Below are positions 18,508 through 51,955 of a stretch of 64,000 nucleotides of DNA, in pieces. The position numbers were made by a program, and so were the translations under genes. Numbering within the stretch: position 1 is the first letter of the stretch; each line of letters begins with the position of its first letter. The stretch is taken from the NCBI GenBank assembly GCA_002500565.1, contig DLRV01000011.1, positions 42,019 through 106,018 of the forward strand, written 5' to 3'. Below the pieces are notes generated by a model, which was not told where the DNA came from, ran no database searches, and saw nothing but the letters and a program-made list of their open reading frames with translations. Origin of the DNA: Holosporaceae bacterium UBA7879. GTDB taxonomy: Bacteria > Pseudomonadota > Alphaproteobacteria > UBA7879.

Positions 18508-20610
18508 ATGTCTGCACATTTAAAAAAGATATTTTTAATTTTGTTGCTGGTGAATACGTATTCTGTTTTGGCAATGGATCCTGCAGAAGATCAAGAAGAA
18601 CCCTCTTTAAGGCGCACCCCTCTTACCTCAGATCGCGCTTCGGAAGATGTGCCTGCCGCAGCGGCGACTGCTGCCGGTCCTGTTCATGAAGTGGGTCAAG
18701 TAAAAGATCCTCTTATTAATGGATGTCGAAAAAAATTTGAGGCCCTCATAGAAGAAGAACCACCAGAATTGAAAGACGAGCTGCGTAGAGCTTATGAGAA
18801 GGTTGGAGAAATGTTTGATGCTTATAAGCCAAAAAAGCCAGGTTGTCCTGTATTCGATGATCAAGTCACAATTAGTCCTGAACTGAAGATATCAGTTGAG
18901 AACCTTCATACCCTCAACAGCAGTTTTTACTTACACGGTTTCATGTCTAGAATTTTTCCTGTAGATGGTCACCGTATGGCTGTACTTCTTGCACTCCAGA
19001 CGTATGAAGAAAAAACTTTTGAACGGGCAAAAAAAAGAGCCAAACTCGAAAAAGAAACAATAGAAGCAAGGAAACCCAGTGACCAGCCAAATGCCCCCAA
19101 AAAAGAAGGACCATCTCCTGGAGCTCCTCCTTCTTTGTGGAGCCTCCTTAACCCTCATAAGCCAGGTAACGGCGGCAAAGGCTTTTTTCCTCCTGTTCCT
19201 GTATTTCCTCATTCTTTGTCGAGCTTCCTTAACCCTCATAAGCCAGGTAACAGCGTCACAGCCTTTTTTCCTGGTGTTAATGGACCTCCTCTTTCAATGG
19301 GCTGTGGGGGAAAACCCAGTGACCAGCCAAATGCCCCCACAAAACCGGGACAAAGAAGTATTGTTTCCCCAGCAGCCTCCGCTCAAGCATCTGCAGCTGC
19401 ATTGCAAGCCACCTCTCCCGCAGCAGCTGCAGCCCCTGACGAACAATCTTTAAAACAAGGTTTAAGCGTTGCAGCCCTTGCACAAACAGTGATTGCTGCA
19501 ATGTCTTCGGGTTCTAATCCTTGCTGTGCGCCATCAATGATATCGAATGCAGCACTGGTATTAAGCCAAGTTGTAAAAGCAAGCGAGGATGATTTCAGAT
19601 ATCACTTTCTTCAGGAAGTGCAGAAAAGCCTTGAGGCGAAAAGTGGCGCTTCCTTTAAGGATCCAGTTCCGCTTTCTTCTTGCGAAGAGCTAGCAGTGGT
19701 TTGCGGCAAACAAATACCCGAAGAGTTCTTATCACTTTTAACAGGCGATGGAAAACTTCAAGTCACACAAAATGTAAACACTTTAACCGGCGAGCCCCAA
19801 AAAATGTTAGAAAAGTTTGCGGAGAGAGAAGATCTAGCAGTAGCAAGTGCTTCGCTATTAACATTCAAGGAGAAATGGTCATCAGCAGTAAGTGCAGAAA
19901 TTTACAGTGGTTCTTTGCCGTGGAAAGATATAAACGGTAATGAAGTAGAACTTCCACCAGGACACTTTTGGAAATTTTCCCGTAAAGGAAAAGAAGAGGG
20001 CATATTCAGCTTTTTAAGAAACTACACCCTAGCAGAAATTTTACACAAATCTACTGAATCAAAAAGAGATATTGGCCCAGTTATTTTGCATGCACAACAA
20101 AATGAAACGGGTGAATGGATAAATGACTTCTCATCACCAGAGGTTTCTCTATTAGGTCTGTTTTCTCCCAATAATAAAAGCCTCGTGGTTTTTGCCAAAG
20201 CAAATGGTGACGAAAATGCACAGAAAGTAACACCTGAAAATGTGTTGAAGATTATGGCATCATGTCACATTTATGGACCCTCTTTCGATAATGCCAACGG
20301 GATTCTCCCGATATTGGAAAGCAATCAAGAAATTAATTTAAAAGATTTATTTAAATTGTATGATCCTAGAATCTTAGAATGGATTCAAACAATTAAAATG
20401 AAAATAAATCATAAAGGAGCAGAAGTTATTGCGCGACAAGTTTTTGGAGCTGTTTTAAGAGGAGGTGGAGGAAATGTGCCTCGTTTTGACCCCTTAACGA
20501 TATTTAAAATGATACAAGCTGGTGGACTATGTATGGTCTTTGATGCGAAAAATCTAGCTTCCCCCCTTGCTGTTACGAAAGTCACCAACCCCACAAAATA
20601 TAAGCCTTAG
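18508..20610 (+). CDS. secreted hypothetical protein with internal tandem peptide repeats (effector candidate)
   Basis: 700 aa; signal peptide (LILLLVNTYSVLA); repeated SDQPNAPxK and LNPHKPGN...FFP motifs (DNA repeats at ~19070/19310 and 19146/19228). Confidence 0.45.
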   Translation: MSAHLKKIFLILLLVNTYSVLAMDPAEDQEEPSLRRTPLTSDRASEDVPAAAATAAGPVHEVGQVKDPLINGCRKKFEALIEEEPPELKDELRRAYEKVGEMFDAYKPKKPGCPVFDDQVTISPELKISVENLHTLNSSFYLHGFMSRIFPVDGHRMAVLLALQTYEEKTFERAKKRAKLEKETIEARKPSDQPNAPKKEGPSPGAPPSLWSLLNPHKPGNGGKGFFPPVPVFPHSLSSFLNPHKPGNSVTAFFPGVNGPPLSMGCGGKPSDQPNAPTKPGQRSIVSPAASAQASAAALQATSPAAAAAPDEQSLKQGLSVAALAQTVIAAMSSGSNPCCAPSMISNAALVLSQVVKASEDDFRYHFLQEVQKSLEAKSGASFKDPVPLSSCEELAVVCGKQIPEEFLSLLTGDGKLQVTQNVNTLTGEPQKMLEKFAEREDLAVASASLLTFKEKWSSAVSAEIYSGSLPWKDINGNEVELPPGHFWKFSRKGKEEGIFSFLRNYTLAEILHKSTESKRDIGPVILHAQQNETGEWINDFSSPEVSLLGLFSPNNKSLVVFAKANGDENAQKVTPENVLKIMASCHIYGPSFDNANGILPILESNQEINLKDLFKLYDPRILEWIQTIKMKINHKGAEVIARQVFGAVLRGGGGNVPRFDPLTIFKMIQAGGLCMVFDAKNLASPLAVTKVTNPTKYKP

Positions 20611-21045: not shown

Positions 21046-21555
21046 TCAATAAACCGGCAAACAGCCCTCATCGATCAACGTTCCCTCAGCATACAGCTTT
21101 GCCTCAGCATCGCGGCGTCTAACCAAGCCTTGCAGTTTTCGCCCTCTAGCTTTAACCCAACGATAGAATTCATTCACCACTTCATCATGCATGTCACGGT
21201 TCAGTTTTTGCCGCAGCGTTGAGCGTTGAAAAGCCATCCCGCCAACATTAAAAATAAAAGACAGTAAAGCTATTTCTTGCAAAATAGTTAACTCAACCTC
21301 AACCAATTGATCAAGTTGTTTTTTAACCCTAACCAAATCACGCCGCAGTAATTTCTCAGCCTTTTCTTTACTCAGGGGTTCTTCAATTTTTTCCCGTGGC
21401 CTAATCACATGGCCATAGCCAATCGTGATCAAACCAGCTGGGCAAAAGTATCGATACCGCCTGAATCCCTCAAACGGTAAAATAAATTTTGTTGCTTGGG
21501 TCAGCACATCACAATTAACATCGCCCAACACCACAAACTCTTTGTTAACAGTCAT
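21046..21555 (-). CDS. phage-type lysozyme (GH24 endolysin)
   Basis: 169 aa; GH24 catalytic region FEGFRRYRYFCPAGLITIGYGH (E...T.GYGH pattern of lambda R/T4 e-like lysozymes). Confidence 0.75.
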   Translation of the reverse strand: MTVNKEFVVLGDVNCDVLTQATKFILPFEGFRRYRYFCPAGLITIGYGHVIRPREKIEEPLSKEKAEKLLRRDLVRVKKQLDQLVEVELTILQEIALLSFIFNVGGMAFQRSTLRQKLNRDMHDEVVNEFYRWVKARGRKLQGLVRRRDAEAKLYAEGTLIDEGCLPVY

Positions 21556-22037: not shown

Positions 22038-22059
22038 TTTTTTTCTCCATATTTTGTTG

Positions 22060-22400
22060 TTTAATTAAATCCGTCATTCTGAGAGGATCTTTAATCCGCG
22101 TGAGAATCTCATCCATTCCCCCGTCATTGCGAAGGAGTGAAACGACTGTGGGAATCTCTTCCGCCTTTAACAAGACCCTCACGTCGAAATTTCATTTCTC
22201 CTCAGGGTGACGGGTAAATAGAAAAACGTCATTGCGAGGCGGAGCGCAGCTCCAACGTGGCAATCTCTTCTGCCTTCACTCCACAAGACCCTCACGTCGA
22301 AATTGCATTTCTCCTCAGGGTGACTGGTTTTGGTTTATACGTCATCATGAGGAGCTGCTTTGCAGCGACGTGATGATCTCTCTTAGACGCGAGAATCTCT
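22060..22400. repeat. large cluster of palindromic MITE-like repeat units
   Basis: at least 7 units (GTCATTCTGAG...GAGAATCTC, GTCATTGCGAGGCGGAGCG...TGGCAATCTC, CCTCAGGGTGACGGGT, GTCATCATGAGGAG...CGACGTGATGATCTC). Confidence 0.7.
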
Positions 22401-22424
22401 CTAATCTCCTTCAAATTCACCGCC

Positions 22425-22946
22425 CTACCGTGACTCCATTATCACCAAGCGCCCTTTGGTCTGCATTAAATCCGGCTGCCAGGTTAGCTGCAGATCTTGA
22501 ACCAACCCTTTCAGGCGCGGCTTATAACGAGCGCCACTGAAGGCCAACTCTGTTTCAAACCAGTTTTGAACCGGGTTTTGCATCCCAGGGATTTCTTCAC
22601 CATCCGCTGTGACAATCCGCAAACTGCCTTGCTGCCAAGGTCTGCTGGTCCAAACCTTGTTCCCGTCTCGCTTCAAATCGTCTCCACTTTCATACCAGCT
22701 GTGGCTCAAGGTTAAGTTAATCTCATCTCCTTTCTTCATGCTCAAAACCGGATCAGAGCGATTGGTTTGAAAATCAATCTCAACCTGGTACAAGGGTCGG
22801 CTTTGCACCGGTCCTACATAAACCCAATCGCCATCAATCGTTGGCTTCATTTGCCCCATCCCTTGCAAACGAATCTGTTCTGTATAGAGTGTAAAATTTT
22901 GCCGCCAGGCATTTAAATCAATGTGTTGCATTGGTATCTTCTCCAT
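22425..22946 (-). CDS. phage-associated hypothetical protein
   Basis: 173-aa ORF overlapping the 3' end of the portal gene on the same strand; no recognisable motif. Confidence 0.35.
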   Translation of the reverse strand: MEKIPMQHIDLNAWRQNFTLYTEQIRLQGMGQMKPTIDGDWVYVGPVQSRPLYQVEIDFQTNRSDPVLSMKKGDEINLTLSHSWYESGDDLKRDGNKVWTSRPWQQGSLRIVTADGEEIPGMQNPVQNWFETELAFSGARYKPRLKGLVQDLQLTWQPDLMQTKGRLVIMESR

Positions 22947-24141
22947 TTCTATTTATTGTTTGTTCTGAGTCCGTAACTGCTGATTTCTCCAGTGGTCCAT
23001 ATCCCACCGCTGCGCGTTTTTCATTGGTTGTGAGAAAGTCAGCTTTTTGGAGTCGTTCCCAAATGGATTCACGTCTAAACGTTAGCGCTGAAATTTTTTC
23101 GGCATCAAAGCTAAACCCTTCCGCATTCATCCCTGCCCAGGTTGAAAACTCGGCCATGATGCGTTGCAGTAAAGGAATGATCGTGTCTTCCCATAAGTGG
23201 AAGCGGGCTTCCTTATAATTGGCAAAAGTGGCATCGCCTGGCACGCCCACCAGCATGGGTGGCACGCCAAACGTTTGTGCCACTTCCCGTGCAGCCATTT
23301 GTTTACCGGTCAGAAAATCCATATCACGTGGGCTCATCCCCATTTCACGCCAATCCAAATCCCCTTCCAACACCATCATTTTGCCAGCTTGGCCTGTGCC
23401 ACCATACGCATCGTTCAGCTCTTGCCGTAACTGTTCGCGTTGTTCTTCGGTCAGGGGCAAGCTATGTTCAGCTTGTTTCATCACCAAAGCCCCAGTTGGC
23501 CGTCCGCCGTTATTCAACAGCGAGATATTGTGTTGGCCCATGGCATTGGCTTGATCAATGGCCAATGCCGCAGCTTGAAGTGGGCTCAGCCCATACCAAT
23601 CGTTGTGGGGGTGAAAAAACTTAATGTGCAGAATGTTCGAAGCGCCTGTCTCGGCATTCACAGGAATAATTCTTTTCCGTCCTTCCACTTCATACTGGAA
23701 CGCTTTCGGAATGCCATGGGGCCCGGGCACCACCGCAACCCGATCTGGACGCAAGGGATATAACTCCATTCGCCCTGTATCTGGGCAGGTATAGCGCTCT
23801 ATGTATGTATTCCCTGATAGCAGCAAATAGCTGGTCACTGTTTCTATAAAACTTGACCACGATTGGCTTGGATTGGGCTTGCTCAAAACTTTTTGCCAGT
23901 GCTTCTGTAATTTTGGACACCAGTTATTTGGTATCTGCCACACCACACTGGCAAGGTTATGGGCAATCACATTAATCGCGCGGTAGACAATGCTATTTTT
24001 GCCATAGCCCTCTTGGCATAAGTTCCAATAACTTTGCGACAGGTCACGGCTTGCCATACCGCTACGCACCGACAAAATAGCCGGCCTTGAGTTTGCACGC
24101 GTTTTTGTGCGTTTTGATTTATTCTGAAACCATTGAAACAT
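22918..24141 (-). CDS. phage portal protein, HK97/GTA family
   Basis: 407 aa; portal-family conserved stretches (YWNLCQEGYGKN, LLLSGNTYIERY, VLEGDLDWREMGMSPRDMDFL, FHLWEDTIIPL) as in HK97-type and RcGTA g3 portals. Confidence 0.75.
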   Translation of the reverse strand: MFQWFQNKSKRTKTRANSRPAILSVRSGMASRDLSQSYWNLCQEGYGKNSIVYRAINVIAHNLASVVWQIPNNWCPKLQKHWQKVLSKPNPSQSWSSFIETVTSYLLLSGNTYIERYTCPDTGRMELYPLRPDRVAVVPGPHGIPKAFQYEVEGRKRIIPVNAETGASNILHIKFFHPHNDWYGLSPLQAAALAIDQANAMGQHNISLLNNGGRPTGALVMKQAEHSLPLTEEQREQLRQELNDAYGGTGQAGKMMVLEGDLDWREMGMSPRDMDFLTGKQMAAREVAQTFGVPPMLVGVPGDATFANYKEARFHLWEDTIIPLLQRIMAEFSTWAGMNAEGFSFDAEKISALTFRRESIWERLQKADFLTTNEKRAAVGYGPLEKSAVTDSEQTINRNGEDTNATH

Positions 24142-25112: not shown

Positions 25113-28100
25113 TTATAATGCTGGTGTTTCATCATCAGAACCTAATAATGGTCTAGCATTCGGAAGTGAGGCAGGTCTGTCATCCGGATTGACATGTTTT
25201 GCACGTGGCACAGCTGACAAATCGACAGAAGGCTCTTTCTCAAACATTTTCACCAGTCCATGGCCTTGCTTAAGTTCATTGTCAACAAATCTTTGGAAAT
25301 TCTCTAATGCAGATTTTCTTGTTTTAGATGATCTTGGAGCGTCATCTTTAGATAGCACAGAAAGATTTACATAACCACTTCCTAGATCCAGACCTTCTGG
25401 CACTTGCCCATTATCTTTCAGTTCTATAAACCAATTATTAACTTGATTAATAAATTTATATTTTTTACCCGTATACTGTTGATGTATCGCATTAAGATCA
25501 ACACCTTTTACAGGTTTTACAGGCGGCAATGCATCACGCAGTCCACCAGCTGAGCGGCGGGCTGGGCTCATGACACGGTCACCAGCCGCTGCTGCTGCCG
25601 CAGCACCTTCTGCACCCTCTTCGCCATCATTAACACCAGCACGGAACTGAGCCAATTCAGTTGCAAATTCCTTAGCAGCAGCTTGATGCTTAGATGCCGC
25701 AGCGATTAGGCCTCTCATTAAATCAGCTAGTACGCCTACATCTTCAACACGGTCAACTTTGGCGTCTTTAATAGCTGTACCATACTGGCTTTCAGTAAAA
25801 ACTTTCACTGCAGCCCGCACAGCTGCTAGCATCGCTTCTTGGCCTTCTTCCGCTGCTACTTTTGCCGCCTCTGCCGTTGCAGCACGCTCTTCAGCCTGTT
25901 GCGCCGCTTGTATCTGCTGGCGCAAGTCTGCCGCTTGAGCTTCTTGAGCTTCTTGTGCCGCTCTTTGGGCTTCCTCAAGTTCTGCTACCTTATCTGCTTC
26001 TACTTCCGCTCTAGCTGCCGCAACCTCTGCCGCTTTAGCTTCTTGTGCATCAAGGGCATGTTGATGTAGTCGTTGTAATTCATTTTCAAGCTCAGCAGTT
26101 CGTTGCGTCAATTCAGCTCTCGCCGCTTCTGCTGCAGCGCGGGCTTCATTAGCTTGTTGTGCTGCTTCATTTGCTGCTTCTAGTTCATGTTGTAATCTTG
26201 CCAATTCTTGAGCTTGAGCTTGAGCCGCAGCATCTTGAGCACCTTGGTTAGCTGCAGCCGCTGCTGCTTGCTGTGCTTCCAAAGCTTCAAATCTGCGTTG
26301 AAGTTCATCTCTAGCTGCTTCTGCATCATGTGCACGACGGGTTGCATCTGCTAAGTTCTGCTCAGCCTCTGCTTTGGCTGCAGCTTCTTGTGCTTGGGCC
26401 TCCGCTGCTCTTTGAGCTTGTTCTGCCTGATCTGCTAGACGACCTTGCAATTCATTTCTCGCCGCTTCTGCTGCAGCGCGGGCTTCACGAGCCTGACGCG
26501 CTTCTTCAGTTGCTGCGTCTAGTTCACGTTGTAACCGTGCCAATTCAGCTGCTTGAGCTTGAGCCGCAGCATCTTGAGCACCTTGGTTAGCTGCAGCCGC
26601 TGCTGCTTGCGCATCCCGAAGTTGTTGTAACTCACCAGCAATTCTTTGCCGTTCAGCCTCTGCATCATCTGCTCGACGGGTTGCAGCTTCTAATTCTTGC
26701 TGATGCGCTGCTAAGTTCTGCTCAGCTTCTGCTTTGGCTTCAGTTGCTGCTGCAACATGCGCCTGAGCTGCTTCTTCAGCTTGTCTTACGGCTGCTGCTT
26801 GGGCCTCCGCTGCTCTTTGAGCTTGTTCTGCCTGATCTGCTAGACGACCTTGCAATTCAGCTCTCGCCGCTTCTGCTGCAGCGCGGGCTTCACGAGCCTG
26901 ACGCGCTTCTTCAGTTGCTGCGTCTAGTTGCTGACGTAACTGTACCAAAGCTTCTTGTTGAGCTTGAGCCGCAGCATCTTGAGCACCTTGGTTAGCTGCA
27001 GCCGCTACTGCTTGTTGCGCATCCCGAAGTTGTTGTAACTCACCAGCAATTCTTTGCTGTTCAGCCGCTGCCGCTTGTGCACGATGGTTAGCTTGATCTG
27101 CAGCATCACCTAACTGCTGCAAACGGTTTTGAACTGCTGCATCAACATCTGCTGGCAACGCAGCATTATCTGCAAGTCCAAGAACTCTTCTTGCAAGAGC
27201 TTGACTTGCTGCTCTGGCGGCATCACGTTCTCTTTCTGCAGCTTCCAACTCTTGCTGACGCGCTGCTACTTCTGCTCGCGCTTGGACCAAATTATCTTCT
27301 GCTTGACGAAGGTCTGCCGCTCTTTGCATTGCCGCTGCTTCATCCGCTGGTGCTTGCTGACCTTGTGGTACTAACGCTGCCAAAATACGACCTTTTTCCT
27401 GCTGTGCAGCATTTAAATCATTTTGCGCTTGCTGTAAGTCCTGCTCAGCTTGACGAAGCGCCTGAGCGCGAGCTACAGCCGCAGGTAAATTTGCAGGTAC
27501 TGTACCATTAACATCTTGCAATTCTTGTAAAAGCTGTCGTCTTCCAGCACGCAAGGCAGCCAATTCTATTTGCTCTTGGTTGTTCAATGGCTGATTAGGG
27601 GCATTTAACTGAGCTTGTGCCGCTGCCGCTGCTGCTACCGCCGCTGCCTCACGCTGCTGTGCCGCTTGCAAATCTAAACGCGCTTGTGCTTCTGCCGCTA
27701 CCGCCGCTGCCGCTGCTGCTGCCGCTTGTTGAGCCGCTTGTGCTTGACGTGCCACATCACCGCGTAGTTGATTTGCTGCCGCAACATGTGCGGCAACTGC
27801 CGGGTCTGGTTGAGCAGGTGGATTACCATTTACTGCTGCTGCTAACTGTTGTAAGCGCGCCCGTTCTGCCGCTTCTGCTTGTTGTGCTTGTTGTGCAGCT
27901 TGCCTTGCCGCTTGTAAATCTACACGCGCTTGTGCTGCTGCCGCAACTGCTGGCACTGGATTAGCAGGCACTTGTTGACCATTTAACACGTCTTCCACCT
28001 CTTGCAGATGAGCTTGTGCCGCTGCCACAGCAGCCTGGTTTCCACCCCCTGCTTGTGCTTGTTGCATTTGCTGAACATAATTAAGAGCATTTCCACTACT

Positions 28101-28316
28101 TAAAAACCGGATAAAATCACCTTTTTGGAGCATTAACCCCATATTGCGAGCAACGACAGGGATATACGCTGGTGGAATTTGTTGCGCAGGTACAACTTTT
28201 GCATTGTGATTACGAATGTAAGCCTCCGCTTGCTCAATTGTTGGCTTACCAGCAGACACTGATACGGCTAAAAAAGCTGTTGTAGCCAATACGCTAAGTT
28301 TAAATTTGTTAAACAT
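25113..28316 (-). CDS. secreted giant coiled-coil repeat protein, Ala/Gln/Glu-rich (eukaryote-like effector candidate)
   Basis: 1067 aa; signal peptide (LSVLATTAFLAVSVSA); ~700 aa of heptad-like A/Q/E/R-rich sequence with three near-identical ~115-130-aa tandem units; unique ~250-aa C-terminal domain. Confidence 0.6.
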   Translation of the reverse strand: MFNKFKLSVLATTAFLAVSVSAGKPTIEQAEAYIRNHNAKVVPAQQIPPAYIPVVARNMGLMLQKGDFIRFLSSGNALNYVQQMQQAQAGGGNQAAVAAAQAHLQEVEDVLNGQQVPANPVPAVAAAAQARVDLQAARQAAQQAQQAEAAERARLQQLAAAVNGNPPAQPDPAVAAHVAAANQLRGDVARQAQAAQQAAAAAAAAVAAEAQARLDLQAAQQREAAAVAAAAAAQAQLNAPNQPLNNQEQIELAALRAGRRQLLQELQDVNGTVPANLPAAVARAQALRQAEQDLQQAQNDLNAAQQEKGRILAALVPQGQQAPADEAAAMQRAADLRQAEDNLVQARAEVAARQQELEAAERERDAARAASQALARRVLGLADNAALPADVDAAVQNRLQQLGDAADQANHRAQAAAAEQQRIAGELQQLRDAQQAVAAAANQGAQDAAAQAQQEALVQLRQQLDAATEEARQAREARAAAEAARAELQGRLADQAEQAQRAAEAQAAAVRQAEEAAQAHVAAATEAKAEAEQNLAAHQQELEAATRRADDAEAERQRIAGELQQLRDAQAAAAAANQGAQDAAAQAQAAELARLQRELDAATEEARQAREARAAAEAARNELQGRLADQAEQAQRAAEAQAQEAAAKAEAEQNLADATRRAHDAEAARDELQRRFEALEAQQAAAAAANQGAQDAAAQAQAQELARLQHELEAANEAAQQANEARAAAEAARAELTQRTAELENELQRLHQHALDAQEAKAAEVAAARAEVEADKVAELEEAQRAAQEAQEAQAADLRQQIQAAQQAEERAATAEAAKVAAEEGQEAMLAAVRAAVKVFTESQYGTAIKDAKVDRVEDVGVLADLMRGLIAAASKHQAAAKEFATELAQFRAGVNDGEEGAEGAAAAAAAGDRVMSPARRSAGGLRDALPPVKPVKGVDLNAIHQQYTGKKYKFINQVNNWFIELKDNGQVPEGLDLGSGYVNLSVLSKDDAPRSSKTRKSALENFQRFVDNELKQGHGLVKMFEKEPSVDLSAVPRAKHVNPDDRPASLPNARPLLGSDDETPAL
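26100..27100. repeat. intragenic tandem DNA repeats (~345-405 bp units, 3 copies)
   Basis: e.g. GCAGCATCTTGAGCACCTTGGTTAGCTGCAGCCGCTGCTGCTTG recurs at ~26221, ~26566, ~26971. Confidence 0.7.
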
Positions 28317-44569: not shown

Positions 44570-44950
44570 ACATCTCACCCGTCATTAGGCGGGTGTCTCA
44601 TGCCTTTACCAGTCATTGCGAAGCGGAGCGCAGCCCAAAACCCGTCATTCTGAGCGGATTTTTAATCCGCGTGAGAATCTGATTTCGCCCAATCGTCATC
44701 ATGAGGAGCTACCTTGTAGCGACGTGATGATCTCTTTCTATTTCACTTAGATCCTCACGCTCTCTTCCCTCGCTCAGGATGACCGGTAAAAGGGGAAGCG
44801 TCATCATGAGGAGGCGTTCACGCCGACGTGATGATCTCATCTGCCTTTAACAAGACCCTCGCGTCAAAATTGCATTTCTCCTCAGGGTGACGGGTAAATA
44901 GAAACCCATCATTCTGAGCGGATTTTTAAATCCGCGTGAGAATCTCCCTT
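44570..44950. repeat. large cluster of palindromic MITE-like repeat units (at least 8 units)
   Basis: all unit types present: CACCCGTCATTAGGCGGGTG, GTCATTGCGAAGCGGAGCG, GTCATTCTGAGCGGATTTTTAATCCGCGTGAGAATCT (twice), GTCATCATGAGGAG...CGACGTGATGATCTC (twice), CCTCAGGGTGACGGGTAAATAGAAA. Confidence 0.75.
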
Positions 44951-44958
44951 AAAGCTTA

Positions 44959-46377
44959 CTAAATAGCAGCTGGTCTTAGCAGCCCCCTGTAACATTCTCC
45001 AAAAAGCTCCATCAAGCTTTCCAACTGATCAGCTGGTACATAAACCCTTTGCAAATTTGTAAAAAAATATTGTGGAAACATTATAAATCTTTCTGATACT
45101 GACAAACTTAAGTATAGAATTTGTAGGAATTTAGTCTCATCCAATAAACGAACCCCAACATGCGTCAATGCTGGCGCATATAGGTGCAGGACTTGTAGGG
45201 AGTAATTCATACTCAAAAATGCATTCCCAACACTCGTCAATGCTGGTACATAGAGATGCATAGTTTGTAGATCGCGGGGGCCACTCAGGACATTATGCCC
45301 ACAACGCGTTAATGCTGGCATATATAGATGCAAAGTTTGCAGATTGAGGTTGCTAGAAAAGAAATAATCCCCAATTGTTTGCACGCTCTCATCAGCATTG
45401 GTTAGTACCAAGTTACGCAGACGATTGGGGAGATCTGCTCTGCCCCGCATGGTAAACACTGGGCCCGCAGCATCAATATCTATAACAACTGTTGGTTGTG
45501 GACCCTCAGCATTTTCTGGCAATAAGCGATTGATATCATCTTTTAATCCAGCCAGCTGGCTGTGTTGAACAACCCAGTAAGAGTCTGTATCAATCGCTTC
45601 CGTTTCAGCGGTGATTTCTTGGTAGTTTGTATCAAGAAACGTCTGCAATCCATTGTGCCCACGTGGGTTCCAAACCCGATCACGGAAAGCTTGCATCCAC
45701 TCTTTTTTCTTGTCTTCAGTGGTATAGTAAACTTCATAGCCAAAAAACTGATGCTGCAATGCGGCTTTTTGCACAAACGTTAAATCTTGTGCATCCTCAC
45801 CCAACGCCTGCAGAATAAGCCTGTACATGTTCTCATGCTGCATGCTCTCACTTTTACTTGCAATGCTCATCGCCATCTCACTGTTGTTTTTTATGGCAAG
45901 AAGCTCATAGCTTCCCAGAGCAGCCTTTAAAATACCTTTTCTCTCTTCTGGTAGATAGCGACGAGATAAAACTTGTTTTAAATCGACTGAAATTCTCTCC
46001 AAGTGAAAAACAGGCAATCCCATATCAGGCAATGCCTTACCCGTTGGATCTTTAGGCCCACCACTCTCTTGATACAGAGCTTTCTTCAGGTGATGAATAC
46101 GTGCATCACCAACCATTCTTGTCATTTGTCTTGAAGCTTCAGCCAACCGCACTGCCGACGTAGGATCCAGAAAGGGCACGATACGATCAATAACCTCTTG
46201 TGGCAGATTCGCTAACGTTGGAGGAGAATCTGATGCTTGCGGCGATGCCGCTGCCGCAGCGGCAGGCTCAGTCTCTTCAGCTTCATCGTTTGGGCCTACG
46301 GCCTGCACCGAGGTGCTCATCATGCCAAGAACCAATGCTATGCCAAGCCATAGCTGTAAAATCTTTTTCATAATCAC
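44959..46377 (-). CDS. secreted leucine-rich-repeat protein (BspA/LRR_5-like; effector candidate)
   Basis: 472 aa; signal peptide (LQLWLGIALVLGMMSTSVQA); C-terminal ~22-aa repeats LQTLHLYMPALTRCGHNVLSGP / LQTMHLYVPALTSVGNAFLSMN / LQVLHLYAPALTHVGVRLLDET. Confidence 0.55.
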   Translation of the reverse strand: MIMKKILQLWLGIALVLGMMSTSVQAVGPNDEAEETEPAAAAAASPQASDSPPTLANLPQEVIDRIVPFLDPTSAVRLAEASRQMTRMVGDARIHHLKKALYQESGGPKDPTGKALPDMGLPVFHLERISVDLKQVLSRRYLPEERKGILKAALGSYELLAIKNNSEMAMSIASKSESMQHENMYRLILQALGEDAQDLTFVQKAALQHQFFGYEVYYTTEDKKKEWMQAFRDRVWNPRGHNGLQTFLDTNYQEITAETEAIDTDSYWVVQHSQLAGLKDDINRLLPENAEGPQPTVVIDIDAAGPVFTMRGRADLPNRLRNLVLTNADESVQTIGDYFFSSNLNLQTLHLYMPALTRCGHNVLSGPRDLQTMHLYVPALTSVGNAFLSMNYSLQVLHLYAPALTHVGVRLLDETKFLQILYLSLSVSERFIMFPQYFFTNLQRVYVPADQLESLMELFGECYRGLLRPAAI

Positions 46378-46509: not shown

Positions 46510-46875
46510 TCACACACATATTCCCCTAAATTCAACACGGTAACCAATCACATCGTTTTTAATGGTTGCCACCTCAATAGCAGCGCCAACAAGAAAGTGC
46601 ATTTGGCTCTCTTCAATATCCAAAACTGTATTAGACAGCTCCTCCAATCGCTCCAGAACTTCCTGAATTTGCAATGTATGCGCAACGTCACACCACACAG
46701 TTAAGTTAGCCTCTATGATTTTGTATCCCTCGTAATCACCTTTGCCAACAGTCGCCTGTTTCATTTCTAAAATTCCATAGGGGCGTTTTATTTTTTGTGG
46801 TACGTGTAAATAAACTGGAATTGGCAAACGCTCCGTTAAAACCTGCTTAAGTCTCGATAAAGTTTGCAACATCAT
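46510..46875 (-). CDS. phage/GTA head-tail joining (tail-completion, g8/DUF3168-like) protein
   Basis: 121 aa; position after g6/g7-like genes in an HK97/GTA-type head module. Confidence 0.4.
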   Translation of the reverse strand: MMLQTLSRLKQVLTERLPIPVYLHVPQKIKRPYGILEMKQATVGKGDYEGYKIIEANLTVWCDVAHTLQIQEVLERLEELSNTVLDIEESQMHFLVGAAIEVATIKNDVIGYRVEFRGICV

Positions 46876-47191
46876 ATGTTACCTCCTTCATCACAAAATA
46901 CAGCCAAGGGCTGGTCGCATCCTTTACGGGTTCTGAGGCCAACTCAAAAAACCGATCTTGCCATTTAACCAAATAGTCACTTTCCAATGGGTGCCCTGCG
47001 TCCATCCAAACCTTATAAAGCGCTTTCAGTTGCTTTTGATCAGCGCTATAGACCACACGTTCTTGACTCGGCCTAATGGCCCGAACCGCCGCCCATGAAT
47101 TAAAAACCGCTATCAGCTCTTGTCTACCATGGTCAACATGCACAGCTGTAATGGGCTCAACCAAATCAAAAGGCGTAATATGTATTTTCAT
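46847..47191 (-). CDS. phage/GTA head-tail adaptor (g7-like)
   Basis: 114 aa; size and position typical of head closure/adaptor protein downstream of gp6-like connector. Confidence 0.45.
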   Translation of the reverse strand: MKIHITPFDLVEPITAVHVDHGRQELIAVFNSWAAVRAIRPSQERVVYSADQKQLKALYKVWMDAGHPLESDYLVKWQDRFFELASEPVKDATSPWLYFVMKEVTYDVANFIET

Positions 47192-47796
47192 GCCACACCT
47201 CGCTTAATATAAGGCATCAGTAATCCCTTCAGCGCTGCATGGTCCAACCGCTCTCCACCATAATAAAAACTTTGGGCCAGCATCATAATCGCCATTTTCA
47301 AAGATTCCGGCACATCAGCTGGCGTTGGTCCATATCCAACCAATGCCTCAAGTTTTAAAACGTCCAAGGGGGCCATTTTTAAACTCACCCGGGTTCGCTC
47401 TCCCAAGGCACGTTGGTAAAGATCATCCAAGTTCACTGCATGTTCTTGGCCTTTGCTGATCCGCCATGCTGCATAAATATTTTGAATTGGCGCGGTGGGT
47501 ACAGAAAACTCCTTGTCCACAAGGGTTTGTTGTCCTTGCTCAACCGCATTCATTCCCTGCATCTTCGCGCGCCCAGCACATGTGACAAAAACGCGTTGGT
47601 TGATAAGCCGCAACTGTAATTTTGCTTCAATATTTTCCTGTGCAGCTTTTAATACTTTTCCTAAAGCTTCATCGGCATGGTAATGAGTCACACGCATATA
47701 ATTTTTAAATTCATAAAGTGGAACCGCTGACATGGATGGGGGGTCAATAATTTTAATCATGATTATTCCTTTCATAAAAAAAAGCGCCGCCAACAA
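47188..47796 (-). CDS. phage gp6-like head-tail connector protein (g6-like)
   Basis: 202-aa ORF (true start probably internal, MIKIIDPP); LEEAKxHLRVD-type pattern (LYEFKNYMRVTHYHADEALGKVLKAAQENIE) of gp6-like connector family. Confidence 0.5.
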   Translation of the reverse strand: MLAALFFMKGIIMIKIIDPPSMSAVPLYEFKNYMRVTHYHADEALGKVLKAAQENIEAKLQLRLINQRVFVTCAGRAKMQGMNAVEQGQQTLVDKEFSVPTAPIQNIYAAWRISKGQEHAVNLDDLYQRALGERTRVSLKMAPLDVLKLEALVGYGPTPADVPESLKMAIMMLAQSFYYGGERLDHAALKGLLMPYIKRGVA

Positions 47797-47801
47797 AAAA
47801 A

Positions 47802-47816
47802 CCAGGCAAAACCTGG
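47802..47816 (-). terminator. rho-independent terminator candidate
   Basis: CCAGGCAAAACCTGG hairpin with A7 upstream on plus (T-run on minus), 40 bp after capsid-gene stop. Confidence 0.45.
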
Positions 47817-47855
47817 GTCATTCATCAGCAAGCGCGTATGTATTTTTAGTTTGAG

Positions 47856-49481
47856 TTAAGCTTGGAAATTCAACAGTTTCAAAGCATCCGGATTAACAAC
47901 CGCTCCTCCTGTTCGTTTTGTGATATAAAACTCAACGTGGGGTTTAGAACTGTATGGATCGCGTAAAATATGCATTCCACTGCGGTCAACAATTTGGTAG
48001 GCCTCCTTAAAGTTTCCAAAGGCAATCGCAACTCCGGCTTGTCCACCTTGTAAGGCTGGCATTTCATCACACACCTCAACCGGATACCCAAGCAAGGTTG
48101 AAACCGCTCCACCCAGTCCTGGCTGCCAGAGGTAATGCCCAGTTGCAGGGTCCTTCAACTTGCGCACCGCGGCTACAGCGGAACGTGACATCAACCAGCA
48201 TGCACCTTGTAAATATTTGGTTTGTAAGCTTTGCATCACATCAATCAGCAAATCAGCTGGTTTCTGCTCTGGAAAAGCTCCATCCACACCCGAATTCAAT
48301 GTGCCAATTTCTTGGCCGTTGTTCGCATTTAGCTCACCACGTGCATGGGTTAAAAACCCTGAAGGTTTATTATTCCCATCTCCATTCACAAACGCCGCTG
48401 TTTCCATCCGCGCCATCCGATCAGCCACACACTGAACCAACCAGTTTTCAACATCAACCTTGGCATCATCCAGCAACTTCTGGGTTGCCCGTGGTTTGGC
48501 ATAAACTTCGTGCACTGCAATGCGCAGCTTTTTAATCTCGCCGGCATCTGTTTCCGCCCGATCGTTTTCTTCAGCTGTCCAGCCTGCATCCGCCAACGAA
48601 CCTGTCAGCAACACATCCACAGCACTGGTGGAAATTTGCATTGTCCGTGCCAGTTTTCTTAAGGGCGACAACGCTTCAATATTCCCCAGCAGGCGGTCAT
48701 GCAAAATTTCAGGAATCAGGTGCCCGCCGTGCTCCTCATCCGTTGTTGTGAGGCCCTTCTGTCGCCACCCCTGCCCCGAGCGCATGAAATTGGCAAAACC
48801 ATGCGCTTTTTCTTCCATGTTTGTTAACGCTGTCGCTGGTTTTTCGTTTGTTTGATTTGTGATCATCTTTTTCTCCTTTTGTTGATCAGTTAATTGATTG
48901 GTTGTTTCAAGCACTTGGTGTTTAACCGTTTGAATTTGCGCTTGTTGATGAGCCGGGAACGTAACCAGAGAAATCTCTAAAAGATTGACCCTTTCAATGG
49001 TAAATCCGCCGGCTTCATTGGGTTGATGCTTCTCGCTGATAAAACCAATAGACAGGCCATCAATTTCACCTTCTTTGAGCAAGGCATAAACTTCACGGGC
49101 CTTGGCCACTTGTAAAAGCAACTTCCCTGTCACCTTCAGCCCATGACTATCCTCTTCAATGCTCAGCCATTGCCCGATAGGGGTTTCTTTATCATGTTGC
49201 CACAATAATTTGGGCCGCTTTTGCTTATGGACATATGCTTGTAAAGACTGGCTAAAAGCCCCCGGCAAGATCACGTCTTGATCCTGATCTGGCTCATTGA
49301 AAACACTGGCATAGCCAGTAAAAATCCCCTCTTCTGAAACTGATTTCAAAGTCAGGGGTTGCACAGCATGGCTGCGCTTGAAGTGCGACATATGTCTCTC
49401 CTTGGTTGTTAAATTGAATTTTGATTGGGTGAAAAAATACTTAAGTAAATTAGCTATCAATAAGCTTGTAGACAGGCACAA
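47856..49481 (-). CDS. HK97-family prohead protease fused to HK97-family major capsid protein
   Basis: 541-aa single ORF; N-terminal ~170 aa has prohead-protease (S78) features (VFNEPDQDQDVILPGAF, HGLKVTGKL, ISLVTFPAHQQAQI); remaining ~370 aa is HK97-fold major capsid (FANFMRSGQ, LIPEILHDRLL, GEIKKLRIAVHEVYAKPRATQKLLDDAKVDVENWL); possible internal start MITNQTNEK. Confidence 0.7.
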   Translation of the reverse strand: MCLSTSLLIANLLKYFFTQSKFNLTTKERHMSHFKRSHAVQPLTLKSVSEEGIFTGYASVFNEPDQDQDVILPGAFSQSLQAYVHKQKRPKLLWQHDKETPIGQWLSIEEDSHGLKVTGKLLLQVAKAREVYALLKEGEIDGLSIGFISEKHQPNEAGGFTIERVNLLEISLVTFPAHQQAQIQTVKHQVLETTNQLTDQQKEKKMITNQTNEKPATALTNMEEKAHGFANFMRSGQGWRQKGLTTTDEEHGGHLIPEILHDRLLGNIEALSPLRKLARTMQISTSAVDVLLTGSLADAGWTAEENDRAETDAGEIKKLRIAVHEVYAKPRATQKLLDDAKVDVENWLVQCVADRMARMETAAFVNGDGNNKPSGFLTHARGELNANNGQEIGTLNSGVDGAFPEQKPADLLIDVMQSLQTKYLQGACWLMSRSAVAAVRKLKDPATGHYLWQPGLGGAVSTLLGYPVEVCDEMPALQGGQAGVAIAFGNFKEAYQIVDRSGMHILRDPYSSKPHVEFYITKRTGGAVVNPDALKLLNFQA

Positions 49482-49731
49482 AATTTTTAAGTAGCATTAT
49501 AAGAAAAACAGGGATTTGACAGATGAAAAATACTCCAGCTTATTCTTTTCTATCTGCCGCCATTCATTCTTACTATAAAACCAGCTTAGCATATGTTAAG
49601 GCAGCGTCAGCACTGTTTAGAGCAAAAGGTTCAATTCATCATTGGCTAGCAATAGATGGTGATGACAAAATAAAATCAATGCTCACCACTTTTAACTGCC
49701 CTTTCCCTCAATAATATTAAGGAGTAAAATA

Positions 49732-50031
49732 ATGGAGAAATATTTTTTAATAAAGAAACAACATATTGTCCTATTTTTTGCAATATCTACTCTAAGCCAA
49801 TGTTTGGCCTCAACCACACTATCTAAAGTACAAGCTTATGGGTGTGCGGTTAACTATGAAATGAAAGCTCAAACATTTTCTGATAGATCAGGAAAAACGA
49901 TACAAATTAAAACCGATGATATAGCCAAAAAACAATGTCCAGATGTTTGCTCACCTTATGGTTCCTGGAACGGACAATGGGGAGATAACTGGGGTGAAAA
50001 TACTTTTTGCTGCTGTTCTAGGCCTGCTTAA
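49732..50031 (+). CDS. small Cys-rich lipoprotein (hypothetical)
   Basis: 99 aa; signal peptide with lipobox LSQC; C-terminal CPDVCSPYGSWNGQWGDNWGENTFCCCS. Confidence 0.4.
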   Translation: MEKYFLIKKQHIVLFFAISTLSQCLASTTLSKVQAYGCAVNYEMKAQTFSDRSGKTIQIKTDDIAKKQCPDVCSPYGSWNGQWGDNWGENTFCCCSRPA

Positions 50032-50533
50032 CAGACACAAAAAACTTATTACTGCTTTTGTATAAATTTTTTATTAACACTTGTCAATAAAAATTTTTCA
50101 AAAAAATAACTTTATCCGCTATTAAAAACTCGGCCCCAAAGTACCGAGTTTAGAAGAGAGAAAGTTGTTTGCCAAACTCTTCTTCTTGATCCATGTTATA
50201 GTTATACCCGATCTTATGAACGATTTTCTTAAGACTCCCTCGATAGGGTTCCTCAAATACCTTATGATAATACTTTGGGATCCACACAAAGTGGTACATA
50301 ATCCTGAATACATAATGTGAATTCCGATCTACTTCCGTAGGCTTATACTGCGCGGGCTAAAATTATACGATAATTTTAGTTATAGCTGCGCATGTATTGA
50401 AATTCTGAAAAAATGTTTTTATATAAGCCAGGCGCATTCAAGAGTGAAGTGCAACACCGTTATTGAATAAGAAAAAAATATCATTATGGATTAAGTAAAA
50501 AGAAGTGGATGATAAATTATTAAGTAGGACACA

Positions 50534-50558
50534 GGGCTCCTCAGATTAAAGGAGCCCT
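50534..50558. terminator. hairpin between convergent genes (possible terminator)
   Basis: AGGGCTCCTCAGATTAAAGGAGCCCT hairpin followed by TCTTTCC; next to the MATE gene stop. Confidence 0.3.
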
Positions 50559-50572
50559 CTTTCCTTCAAAGC

Positions 50573-51955
50573 CTATACAACGACTTGCGGCTCTTTTGTG
50601 ACATCAAGTTTCTTCCACTTACCCGACTGATAGCGTCGTATAAACAAAAGTAAATTCATTGAAGCATAGAAAACCAAGAACACCCATTGCATCGATGGGC
50701 TAATCAAATCCATCTTCATAGCTATAACACATGGGATAAAACCAAATAAAAAGGCGCAAGCTGGGTTTGCAAACATGATAAAAACTGTATCCCCTGCTGA
50801 TTTCATAATCCCAACAATAACCCATACAAAACTATCAATGAGCATAAACAACCACACGTAACGCAAAGCCCAAACACTATGTATGTAGAGCTCAGAGCCA
50901 TAAATATACCGCGCTTGGTCAATTTCTAAAACATCCAAAATAATTTCTGGATATATCACCATAAAAGGTAATAAAATTAATAGCCACAAACCTACCAGTT
51001 TAGCAGCTGAACGAATTAATTTTGGAATTAGTTCTATTTGCTTTGAACCAATCAAATTTGCAGCTATTGCCGTTGTTCCTTTTTCTAACCCCTCTGTAAA
51101 GAAAATAAAGAAAATAAGAATTGTTTGCCCAACCACAAATACAGTCAAAAAAATCTCTCCTTGTTGCGATGAAAAATAAAATAACAGGCTCCAACCCAAC
51201 ACCTCAATTGTATGTCCAATAGCTGATGGCAGTCCAATTCGCACACTTTCACGCATTAACTTCATATTAAACGCCAAAGTAAGTGTTTTAAATTTTTCTC
51301 GAAAATGCGGTTTTAGATAAGAGAAGACTAAAATTAAACAAATAGCCAGCTCTCCTAATAATGTTGCATAGGCTGCACCTTCAACACCCATACTTGGGAT
51401 TGGACCAATCCCAAATATTAAAATTGGATCCATAATTATATTTACAAAATTGCCAGCCAATGAAGCGTATAAAGAAATTTTTGTTTTTCCAATTCCGGCA
51501 AAAAATCCATTAAGGGCAGCTGAAAGGCACAACAATGTTCCCCCACTCAAAAAAATTCGCATATAAGGCACGCCATATGTATGCTGAGAAGATTCAATGA
51601 AATATGGCGCAATAAAAAAAGCAGATGGAACAAAAACCAAAGTGGCGGCTAAGGCCACGAGAATCATTTGTCCGGTGGCCTTACCGACTTCATGATATTT
51701 TCCAGCACCGTTGTATTGACCAACAAACACTTCACTAATAGCACAGAGAGAAAGGGGTATAAGTAAAAAGGTGTATGATATCAACCCCCCAACGGCAGCA
51801 CCGTTCATTGCCTCTACCTTGTAATGAGAAAGGAAAAGACGATCAAAAAAGTTCATCAAGCTTCCCGTCAACAACCCTAGAATGATAGGGCCGGCAATGG
51901 TAAAAAGCTCGGGAAGGCTAGCGGTTGGGTATTTTGTTAAATGTTTTTCAGACAT
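50573..51955 (-). CDS. MATE-family multidrug efflux transporter
   Basis: 460 aa, 12 TM; MATE-family pattern across two 6-TM halves (LLIPLSLCAISEVFVGQYNGAG, etc.). Confidence 0.7.
   Translation of the reverse strand: MSEKHLTKYPTASLPELFTIAGPIILGLLTGSLMNFFDRLFLSHYKVEAMNGAAVGGLISYTFLLIPLSLCAISEVFVGQYNGAGKYHEVGKATGQMILVALAATLVFVPSAFFIAPYFIESSQHTYGVPYMRIFLSGGTLLCLSAALNGFFAGIGKTKISLYASLAGNFVNIIMDPILIFGIGPIPSMGVEGAAYATLLGELAICLILVFSYLKPHFREKFKTLTLAFNMKLMRESVRIGLPSAIGHTIEVLGWSLLFYFSSQQGEIFLTVFVVGQTILIFFIFFTEGLEKGTTAIAANLIGSKQIELIPKLIRSAAKLVGLWLLILLPFMVIYPEIILDVLEIDQARYIYGSELYIHSVWALRYVWLFMLIDSFVWVIVGIMKSAGDTVFIMFANPACAFLFGFIPCVIAMKMDLISPSMQWVFLVFYASMNLLLFIRRYQSGKWKKLDVTKEPQVVV

Follow-up and report, generated by a model that had tools for sequence, protein, structure and literature searches.

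A GTA-like set of phage-derived genes, probably maintained and split among at least three loci, in an uncultured marine alphaproteobacterium

The genes for RcGTA, the gene transfer agent (GTA) of Rhodobacter capsulatus, are found at several loci, and its structures (6TBA, 6TE9, and related entries) are reportedly from Bardy and colleagues in 2020. Another kind of phage-derived element, the capsid-forming phage-inducible chromosomal islands (PICIs), has HK97-type head and connector genes and no tail genes. Here we describe a set of phage-derived genes in a 64-kb stretch of contig DLRV01000011.1 (assembly GCA_002500565.1). We will refer to this entire stretch as the window, and all coordinates are within it. 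At the center of the set are four adjacent genes (46510–49481) for the head and neck of an HK97-type particle. We consider it probable that these four genes are part of an ancient and selectively maintained GTA-like set that has been rearranged into at least three pieces.

George et al. 2022 (Genome Biol Evol 14:evac099; PMC9254644) reported that Rickettsiales and Holosporaceae keep GTA capsid and portal genes without recognizable tail genes. The stopper and the terminator are kept in a clade of amoeba and rhizarian symbionts. The terminase lies away from the cluster. These GTA genes of endosymbionts have ratios of nonsynonymous to synonymous substitution rates (dN/dS) below 1, and their transcripts were detected. 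The same study noted that divergent tail genes might be hidden among the uncharacterized genes that follow the adaptor.

The genes in the window resemble these clusters: the host is an endosymbiont-type alphaproteobacterium; the portal, protease, capsid, adaptor, stopper, and terminator are kept; no tube or tape measure is recognizable; no terminase lies beside the cluster; and the genes are under purifying selection. A previous sequence-only reading of this DNA had suggested a domesticated, scattered GTA-like cluster, which matches what PMC9254644 describes for Holosporaceae and Rickettsiales. So the overall pattern is already published and will not surprise a specialist. However, the window has a single fused gene for protease and capsid, and its set is spread over three or more loci, the portal being apart from the capsid. 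Also, the host's metagenome-assembled genome (MAG) is labelled as Rickettsiales in GenBank, yet its phage-derived genes group with Holosporales-type clusters. Going beyond PMC9254644, we traced two downstream genes: f3, whose product has the fold of a tail-tube or distal-tail (Dit) protein, and f8. What is new here is the map of the fragmentation and the evidence for a tail fold in f3.

As compared to RcGTA, the equivalents of g3–g8 are in the same order (allowing for the split), the best solved-structure matches of the capsid and the portal are to RcGTA proteins, and the neck proteins are linked to RcGTA by profiles. In contrast to RcGTA, there is a GH24 endolysin, CtrA sites are not enriched, and g2 and g9–g15 are not detectable in the window. 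The genes that follow g8 in this lineage (f3, f4, and f8) have no sequence-profile similarity to g12 or g13 of RcGTA. Rickettsiaceae-type clusters (such as L027, from Tisiphia) are similar to the window in that the protease and capsid are often fused, the portal does not adjoin them, and there is no tube or tape measure. But those clusters keep g12 and g13 after g8, whereas f3 and f8 take their place in the window's lineage, whose capsid is in a different clade.

Head, neck, portal, and lysis genes

The region from 46510 to 49481 contains four consecutive and uninterrupted open reading frames (ORFs) on the minus strand (Table 1). With a TTG extension, the first of these ORFs spans 47856–49481, but the start is most likely the ATG at 49391, as 511-amino-acid (aa) proteins are called in five independent assemblies. 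In a single frame, this ORF matches both Peptidase_S78 (E = 1.6e-35) and Phage_capsid (E = 8.9e-75), and it scores above the NCBIfam cut-offs for HK97 prohead protease (TIGR01543) and HK97 major capsid protein (TIGR01554). Its top match among solved structures is the RcGTA capsid Rcc01687 (2e-62). Furthermore, His96 and Ser144, which are typical of S78 proteases, are invariant in an alignment of 28 sequences.

Table 1. Features of the window, with dN/dS for genes that were compared to the sister lineage
Feature	Coordinates	Strand	dN/dS	Basis or position
Prohead protease (S78)-HK97 major capsid fusion (g4+g5 equivalent)	47856..49391	-	0.045	511 aa; Pfam and NCBIfam
Head-tail adaptor (g6 equivalent)	47188..47796	-	0.15	TIGR02215, phrog_442, profile A7
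Stopper/head-completion protein (g7 equivalent)	46847..47191	-	0.059	Phage_HCP, profile A8
Tail terminator (g8 equivalent)	46510..46875	-	0.114	phrog_176, profile A2
Single A-B-A repeat array copy	44790..44958	-		Directly 3' of the F-box/LRR gene at the end of the head module
Portal protein (g3 equivalent)	22918..24141	-	0.074	Pfam, 2e-76; above TIGR01537 cut-off
Family f3 protein, 168 aa	22425..22931	-	0.145	f3 profile and hhalign; overlaps end of portal gene
Palindromic repeat array, A and B units	22040..22425	-		Between f3 and the holin-like gene
Holin-like membrane protein, 156 aa	21567..22037	-	0.005	phrog_6637, 2.6e-35
GH24 phage-type lysozyme (endolysin)	21046..21555	-	0.06	Phage_lysozyme, 3.3e-36; phrog_7, 6e-38
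Positional candidate for the f4 slot, 835 aa	11888..14395	-	0.24	Directly upstream of f8; weak
Family f8 homologue, 293 aa	10820..11701	-	0.107	f8 profile, E = 1e-17; hhalign 98.1%
pgk (housekeeping)			0.118	
RecJ (housekeeping)			0.07	
O-methyltransferase (housekeeping)			0.19	

The three neck proteins are more diverged. When used as single sequences, the equivalents of g6, g7, and g8 had no match among solved structures; only profiles of their families did. The adaptor, whose start codon is uncertain (various assemblies call proteins of 181–195 aa), is above the cut-off for the head-tail connector family TIGR02215 (57.8 bits versus 39) and matches phrog_442 (2e-7). With its family profile, there is a full-length match to the RcGTA adaptor Rcc01688 (E = 8e-16). 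The stopper by itself has a weak match to Phage_HCP (E = 1e-3). Iterative searches with hidden Markov models (HMMs) group it with the genes that occupy its position in 69 loci, and the resulting profile matches 2kz4 (4e-13) as well as SPP1 gp16 and the RcGTA stopper Rcc01689 (1.5e-7). Similarly, the terminator has a weak match to phrog_176 ("tail terminator", 6e-4) and is grouped by iterated HMM searches with same-position genes in dozens of related loci; the profile for this family matches SPP1 gp17 (8e-7) and the RcGTA terminator Rcc01690 (4e-5).

We also noticed a terminator-like hairpin followed by a run of T (47802–47816, minus strand) between the capsid gene and g6, and a sigma-70-like promoter (10 of 12 matches, 49599–49572) upstream of the capsid gene. 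As judged from the sequence, these could yield high expression of the capsid and lower expression of the neck proteins.

The portal gene is 22 kb away from the head module. Its top match among solved structures is the RcGTA portal Rcc01684 (5e-75), with the runner-up at 2.5e-11. The gene after the portal was identified by comparing an HMM for family f3 to the six-frame translation of the window (E = 2e-5; hhalign 94.5%). In about 40–47 related clusters, the f3 gene is directly after the terminator. The 168-aa protein has a confident structure model with the fold of phage tail-tube or Dit proteins. By sequence, the f3 profile had no match in PDB, and hhalign found no link between f3 and g12.

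Next in order are the 156-aa membrane protein and the lysozyme. Homologues of the 156-aa protein are found at the 3' end of three related clusters (L002, L044, and L053); its position beside the lysozyme suggests that it acts as a holin. The lysozyme resembles BgtA of BaGTA but scores below the BgtA cut-off. The order of portal, 168-aa gene, 156-aa gene, and lysozyme recurs in six assemblies.

These results uphold much of what had been read from the sequence alone: four minus-strand genes in the order of a GTA head module (protease-capsid, then g6-, g7-, and g8-like), which end at a gene for a secreted leucine-rich-repeat (LRR) protein, and a portal gene 22 kb off beside a lysis cassette. The LRR gene (44959–46377) does have a signal-peptide-like N-terminus, as well as weak matches to F-box and BspA-type LRR domains.

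Selective constraint and relatives

We computed dN/dS by the Nei-Gojobori method against a sister lineage (loci L001, L097, and L098), at dS of about 0.5–1.2. The values for nine phage-derived genes range from 0.005 to 0.15, versus 0.06–0.19 for neighboring housekeeping genes. Because the genes are intact and their dN/dS is as low as that of flanking housekeeping genes, we conclude that they are being maintained and are not decaying. The sequence-only reading had mentioned decay as one option, which does not fit: in the head module, every ORF is intact and dN/dS is 0.045–0.15, versus 0.118 for neighboring pgk. It had also proposed looking for intact frames and purifying selection across related strains; the frames are intact in several assemblies, and purifying selection is found in the comparison with the sister lineage.

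We considered an alternative in which an old prophage is eroding and being scrambled within the reductive genome of an endosymbiont, and the genes are its non-functional relics. This would account for the broken-up state of the cluster and for the effector-like and housekeeping genes that interrupt it, for the absence of terminase and classical tail genes from the window, and for the strain that differs just downstream, inside the LRR gene. But all 10 candidate genes are intact in several assemblies, and even if we include the 835-aa protein, dN/dS ranges from 0.005 to 0.24, which is comparable to housekeeping genes. Furthermore, L002 has the block of four genes in another genomic setting, at 49% identity, and the block is conserved across dozens of MAGs. 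So we think that relics are quite unlikely.

The 156-aa membrane protein is far more constrained than any neighboring gene: it is 99% identical in the sister lineage even though dS is 0.56. This is unusual for a holin.

Among the matches listed, the nearest relatives of the capsid are 94, 78, 67, 64, and 49% identical. All of these are on metagenomic bacterial contigs with housekeeping genes on the flanks, and the ones with names are Holosporales or Holosporaceae MAGs. The alphaproteobacterial context that had been proposed for these genes holds. We called and clustered ORFs in 82 related loci and found two main arrangements. In type A (about 40 Holosporales-like loci), the order is portal, protease, capsid, g6, g7, g8, f3, an EamA transporter gene, f4, f8, f10, a SleB-type hydrolase, and f6. 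In these clusters, f3 is about 170 aa, f4 is about 590 aa with a CBM5/12-like motif, and f8 is about 290 aa; some of them end in the 156-aa protein and a lysozyme instead. The EamA gene is on the opposite strand and always lies between f3 and f4 (L002, L009, L010, L014, L016, L044, and about 30 more), so it is an odd but stably inherited passenger or partner. In type B, from Rickettsiaceae (L017, L021, L026–L029, L036, L053, L055, and L073, including Tisiphia), the capsid, g6, g7, and g8 are followed directly by g12 (DUF2460) and g13 (BR0599/hub). Type B lacks genes for the tube, chaperone, and tape measure, which suggests that these clusters may encode a tail without a tube.

Genes with Terminase_6N and Terminase_6C domains are found upstream of the portal only in a few tail-bearing clusters. 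We checked other candidate terminases upstream of type A portals and rejected them: they are an MFS transporter, a sigma-54 activator, a poly(A) polymerase, and others, and only family f24 is a terminase.

In a neighbor-joining tree (computed without support values), the window's capsid lies with L001, L003, and L002 inside the type A clade. The phmmer scores for the top 12 type A clusters were 397–429 bits for the portal and 338–383 bits for the capsid (or 695 bits for L001, which is 94% identical). Loci with an adjoining terminase (L041, L064, L067, L074, and L081) scored 346–367 bits for the portal and 268–313 bits for the capsid, and canonical GTA clusters (MW462191 and MW091529) scored 277–291 and 222–226 bits. 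As for phages, the best one for the portal (from Desulfofustis) scored 254 bits for the portal and 198 bits for the capsid; Azospirillum phage Cd scored 52 and 248 bits; and other phages (from Klebsiella and Pseudomonas) scored 63–64 and 181–194 bits. So the proposed test, whether both proteins would cluster with GTAs and not with phages, gave an ambiguous answer: for the portal, every phage examined is more distant than the GTA clusters, whereas for the capsid, phage Cd scores about as well as the canonical clusters. (The two canonical clusters, L101 or MW091529.1 and L102 or MW462191.1, are listed in INPHARED as "Bacteriophage sp." but run from terminase to a g15-like gene, with bacterial flanks; they are probably mislabelled as phages.) Given these comparisons, we propose firmly, from sequence relationships, that the genes belong to a chromosomal Holosporales-type family related to RcGTA.

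Could the genes be pieces of a recent and still mobile element, either an ordinary temperate phage or a satellite that steals tails, as capsid-forming PICIs do? Head and connector genes without a tail are reminiscent of these PICIs, the capsid here is 43.5% identical to that of Azospirillum phage Cd, and a tRNA-Ser gene lies between two of the fragments. However, among the window ORFs that were scanned, there is no integrase, no att repeat, no replication or lysogeny gene, no terminase (including the small terminase), and no complete tail module, which is not what we would expect for an intact prophage. Similarly, integrase, alpA, replication, and small terminase genes are missing from beside the head genes, whose neighbors are MatE, pgk, an MVL-like ORF, and the F-box/LRR gene. 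Unlike capsid-forming PICIs, the genes are not in a discrete mobile island; they are fixed in the chromosome, with housekeeping genes (pgk, MatE, nusA, and infB) on their flanks, and the sister lineage, at a dS of about 0.6, has them at the syntenic position. Finally, the best relatives in IMG/VR are only about 45% identical, and f3, f4, and f8 were present in none of the 80 examined. A mobile element is therefore very improbable.

Fragmentation and a proposed role

Read along the minus strand, the first fragment is capsid, g6, g7, and g8, followed by the LRR gene, a repeat, and then housekeeping genes over about 20 kb. The second fragment is portal, f3, repeats, the holin-like gene, and lysozyme, followed by about 6.6 kb of variable genes and tRNA-Ser. 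The third fragment is the 835-aa protein and f8. In the sister lineage, the layout is split in the same way: portal, f3, repeats, 156-aa protein, and lysozyme; then a variable region; then an 842-aa protein, f8, AhpC, and RecJ. Relative to the order in type A, the block from capsid to g8 appears to have been lifted out from between the portal and f3.

Family f8 is conserved in related clusters, where it belongs to their distal part. Its structure model is poor (predicted local distance difference test of 50, from 6 sequences), its profile had no match in PDB by sequence, and hhalign found no link between f8 and g13. The 835-aa protein has no match in Pfam or PHROG and no homology to f4 that hhalign could detect. 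A 189-aa ORF that adjoins f8 was considered as another cluster gene and rejected, as it is AhpC/redoxin.

The order of a 343-aa gene, the LRR gene, and g8 through pgk recurs in five independent assemblies (L091–L095). Several other assemblies break inside a 1067-aa gene with Ala/Gln repeats, and one contig (L089) diverges from the window, so the exact 22-kb linkage of the portal to the head module rests on the more contiguous assemblies. That the portal does not adjoin the capsid is robust: MatE and pgk are upstream of the capsid gene in every assembly that reaches that far.

The sequence-only reading had described a truncated head module with no tail genes. It is true that the window has no detectable terminase, tape measure, or g9–g15. 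But a gene with a tail fold (f3) lies beside the portal, and f8 is found farther along. Because homologues of both f3 and f8 are present, the cluster is fragmented, not cut off. We did not detect homologues of f4, f10, the SleB-type hydrolase, EamA, or RcGTA g2 in the window. So instead of a contiguous cluster of about 15 kb with most of g2–g15, there are equivalents of only g3–g8, at two separate loci. A scan of metagenomes for terminases listed 80 loci, none of which could be attributed to this genome.

We propose that the set is fixed in the chromosome, is related to RcGTA, and is conserved across Holosporales-like and Rickettsiales endosymbionts, and that rearrangement split it into at least three pieces, all on the same strand and within 40 kb. 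All of the pieces are intact and subject to purifying selection, so it is most likely that the genes continue to act together in trans. The layout of RcGTA over several loci would be a precedent for this. The fusion protein would assemble on the portal to form a procapsid, and the S78 domain, with its conserved His/Ser pair, would cleave itself out. The adaptor, stopper, and terminator would then close the neck. Instead of a tube with a tape measure, a very short tail might be formed from f3 and further unrecognized proteins. The holin-like protein and the lysozyme would release the particles. Their cargo could be DNA (packaged via a terminase that is encoded elsewhere) or something else.

Several observations weigh against this proposal. 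The role of the 835-aa protein is purely positional. In its similarity to the window's capsid, Azospirillum phage Cd is roughly on par with canonical GTA clusters, so it is context and not capsid similarity that justifies the label "GTA". The missing terminase, tape measure, and g9–g15 count here as well. CtrA-type sites (TTAA-N7-TTAA) are not enriched in the window (5, versus 3.45 expected). And electron microscopy of over 850 endosymbiont cells found no particles (PMC9254644).

Another explanation is that the shell has been repurposed as a container, delivery, or storage device for proteins (similar to an encapsulin, or a particle for interacting with the host) and does not package DNA. This option was raised for the GTAs of endosymbionts in PMC9254644, which noted that intracellular populations, being small and clonal, would seem to gain little from gene transfer. 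It would fit with the lack of a terminase in the window and with the secreted, effector-like F-box/LRR protein that is encoded next to the module. However, an encapsulin would be a shell without a portal, protease, or neck, and here we find the portal, the S78 protease, and three neck proteins. The strong constraint on the portal, adaptor, stopper, terminator, and lysis cassette fits a particle that packages DNA, bears a tail, and is released by lysis. Also, related Holosporaceae carry a large terminase elsewhere in the genome (PMC9254644). Thus we consider repurposing to be unlikely, although less so than relics or a mobile element.

These results show that a "missing tail" can in part be an artifact of annotation: f3 has a tail fold, and conserved genes can be scattered over the chromosome. 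A bolder version of this idea, which we offer tentatively, is that "tail-less" clusters of the Holosporales type encode a complete minimal tail, with f3 on the terminator, then f4, f10, f8, and the SleB-type hydrolase. (Both f4 and f10 have CBM5/12-like motifs.) These clusters would be a distinct and functional short-tailed lineage, which in this genome would act in trans from at least three loci and might be co-regulated via a structured repeat that is found 3' of two of the fragments. The proteins f3, f4, f8, and the holin-like protein are concrete candidates for expression or cryo-electron microscopy. More broadly, our results extend the list of endosymbionts with strongly constrained GTA-like head genes to an uncultured marine lineage, and they bear on what such particles do in intracellular bacteria and on whether a delivery device persists.

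Repeats, neighboring genes, and the host

The structured repeat has two kinds of units. The A-type unit is GAGATTnnCACG...CAnAATGACGG, and changes in its stem are apparently compensatory. The B unit is a 43-nt element that contains a hairpin. There are only three B units in the window: two in the array at 22040–22425 and one at 44851–44893. Each copy is just 3' of a phage-derived block. Relative to shuffled controls, the z scores for RNA folding were -3.0 for 22040–22425 and -3.7 for 44790–44958. In the sister lineage (L098), similar units are at the same site between f3 and the holin-like gene. The repeat region has no match in Rfam. The repeat could be a scar of recombination or a shared regulatory element. 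Members of the family are also at 18391–18408 and 44664–44681.

The host is an uncultured marine alphaproteobacterium, and its genes suggest that it lives as an endosymbiont: the hallmarks are a TLC-type ATP/ADP translocase (2.9e-156) and the secreted F-box/LRR protein. Other genes in the window include infB, nusA, pgk, a type VI secretion system (T6SS), and effector-like secreted proteins, and the GC content is 42%. Proteins from the window have exact sequence matches in a MAG from Tara Oceans (GCA_002696935.1, "Rickettsiales bacterium", locus tags CMM87_). The TLC gene and the GC content had at first raised the possibility that the DNA was from Chlamydiae, which we rejected given the names of the homologues and the identity of the MAG.

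The F-box/BspA-LRR protein next to the head module resembles an effector that targets eukaryotes. The 167-kb contig L089 departs from the window inside this gene, at 45398. Past that point, L089 has another C-terminus for the LRR protein, and the downstream neighbors are an MFS transporter, arginyl-tRNA synthetase, rpsB, and tsf. This breakpoint reflects either a rearrangement at the level of strains or recombination between paralogues.

On the other side of the head module, an MVL-like ORF separates MatE from the capsid gene, although not in the 94%-identical relative (L001). The interval at 49433–50589 is about 1.15 kb in the window and about 0.3 kb in that relative, and part of the difference is due to a gene (49732–50031) for a small secreted protein that carries an MVL mannan-binding lectin motif. 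Farther along, at 58720–63649, are the T6SS genes vgrG, tssG, and tssF (dN/dS of 0.04–0.055), which are a second and unrelated phage-derived machine in the same neighborhood.

The interval from the lysozyme to the 835-aa gene (14481–20610) includes tRNA-Ser (15577–15669) and large secreted or proline-rich proteins without family matches. At the equivalent position, the sister lineage has a 635-aa protein, a MarR protein, and small ORFs instead, so this is a variable island. Upstream of the portal, the 1067-aa gene (25113–28316) encodes a secreted coiled-coil protein that is rich in Ala, Gln, and Glu; it has internal repeats of 270 bp and coincides with a local peak in GC content of 53%.

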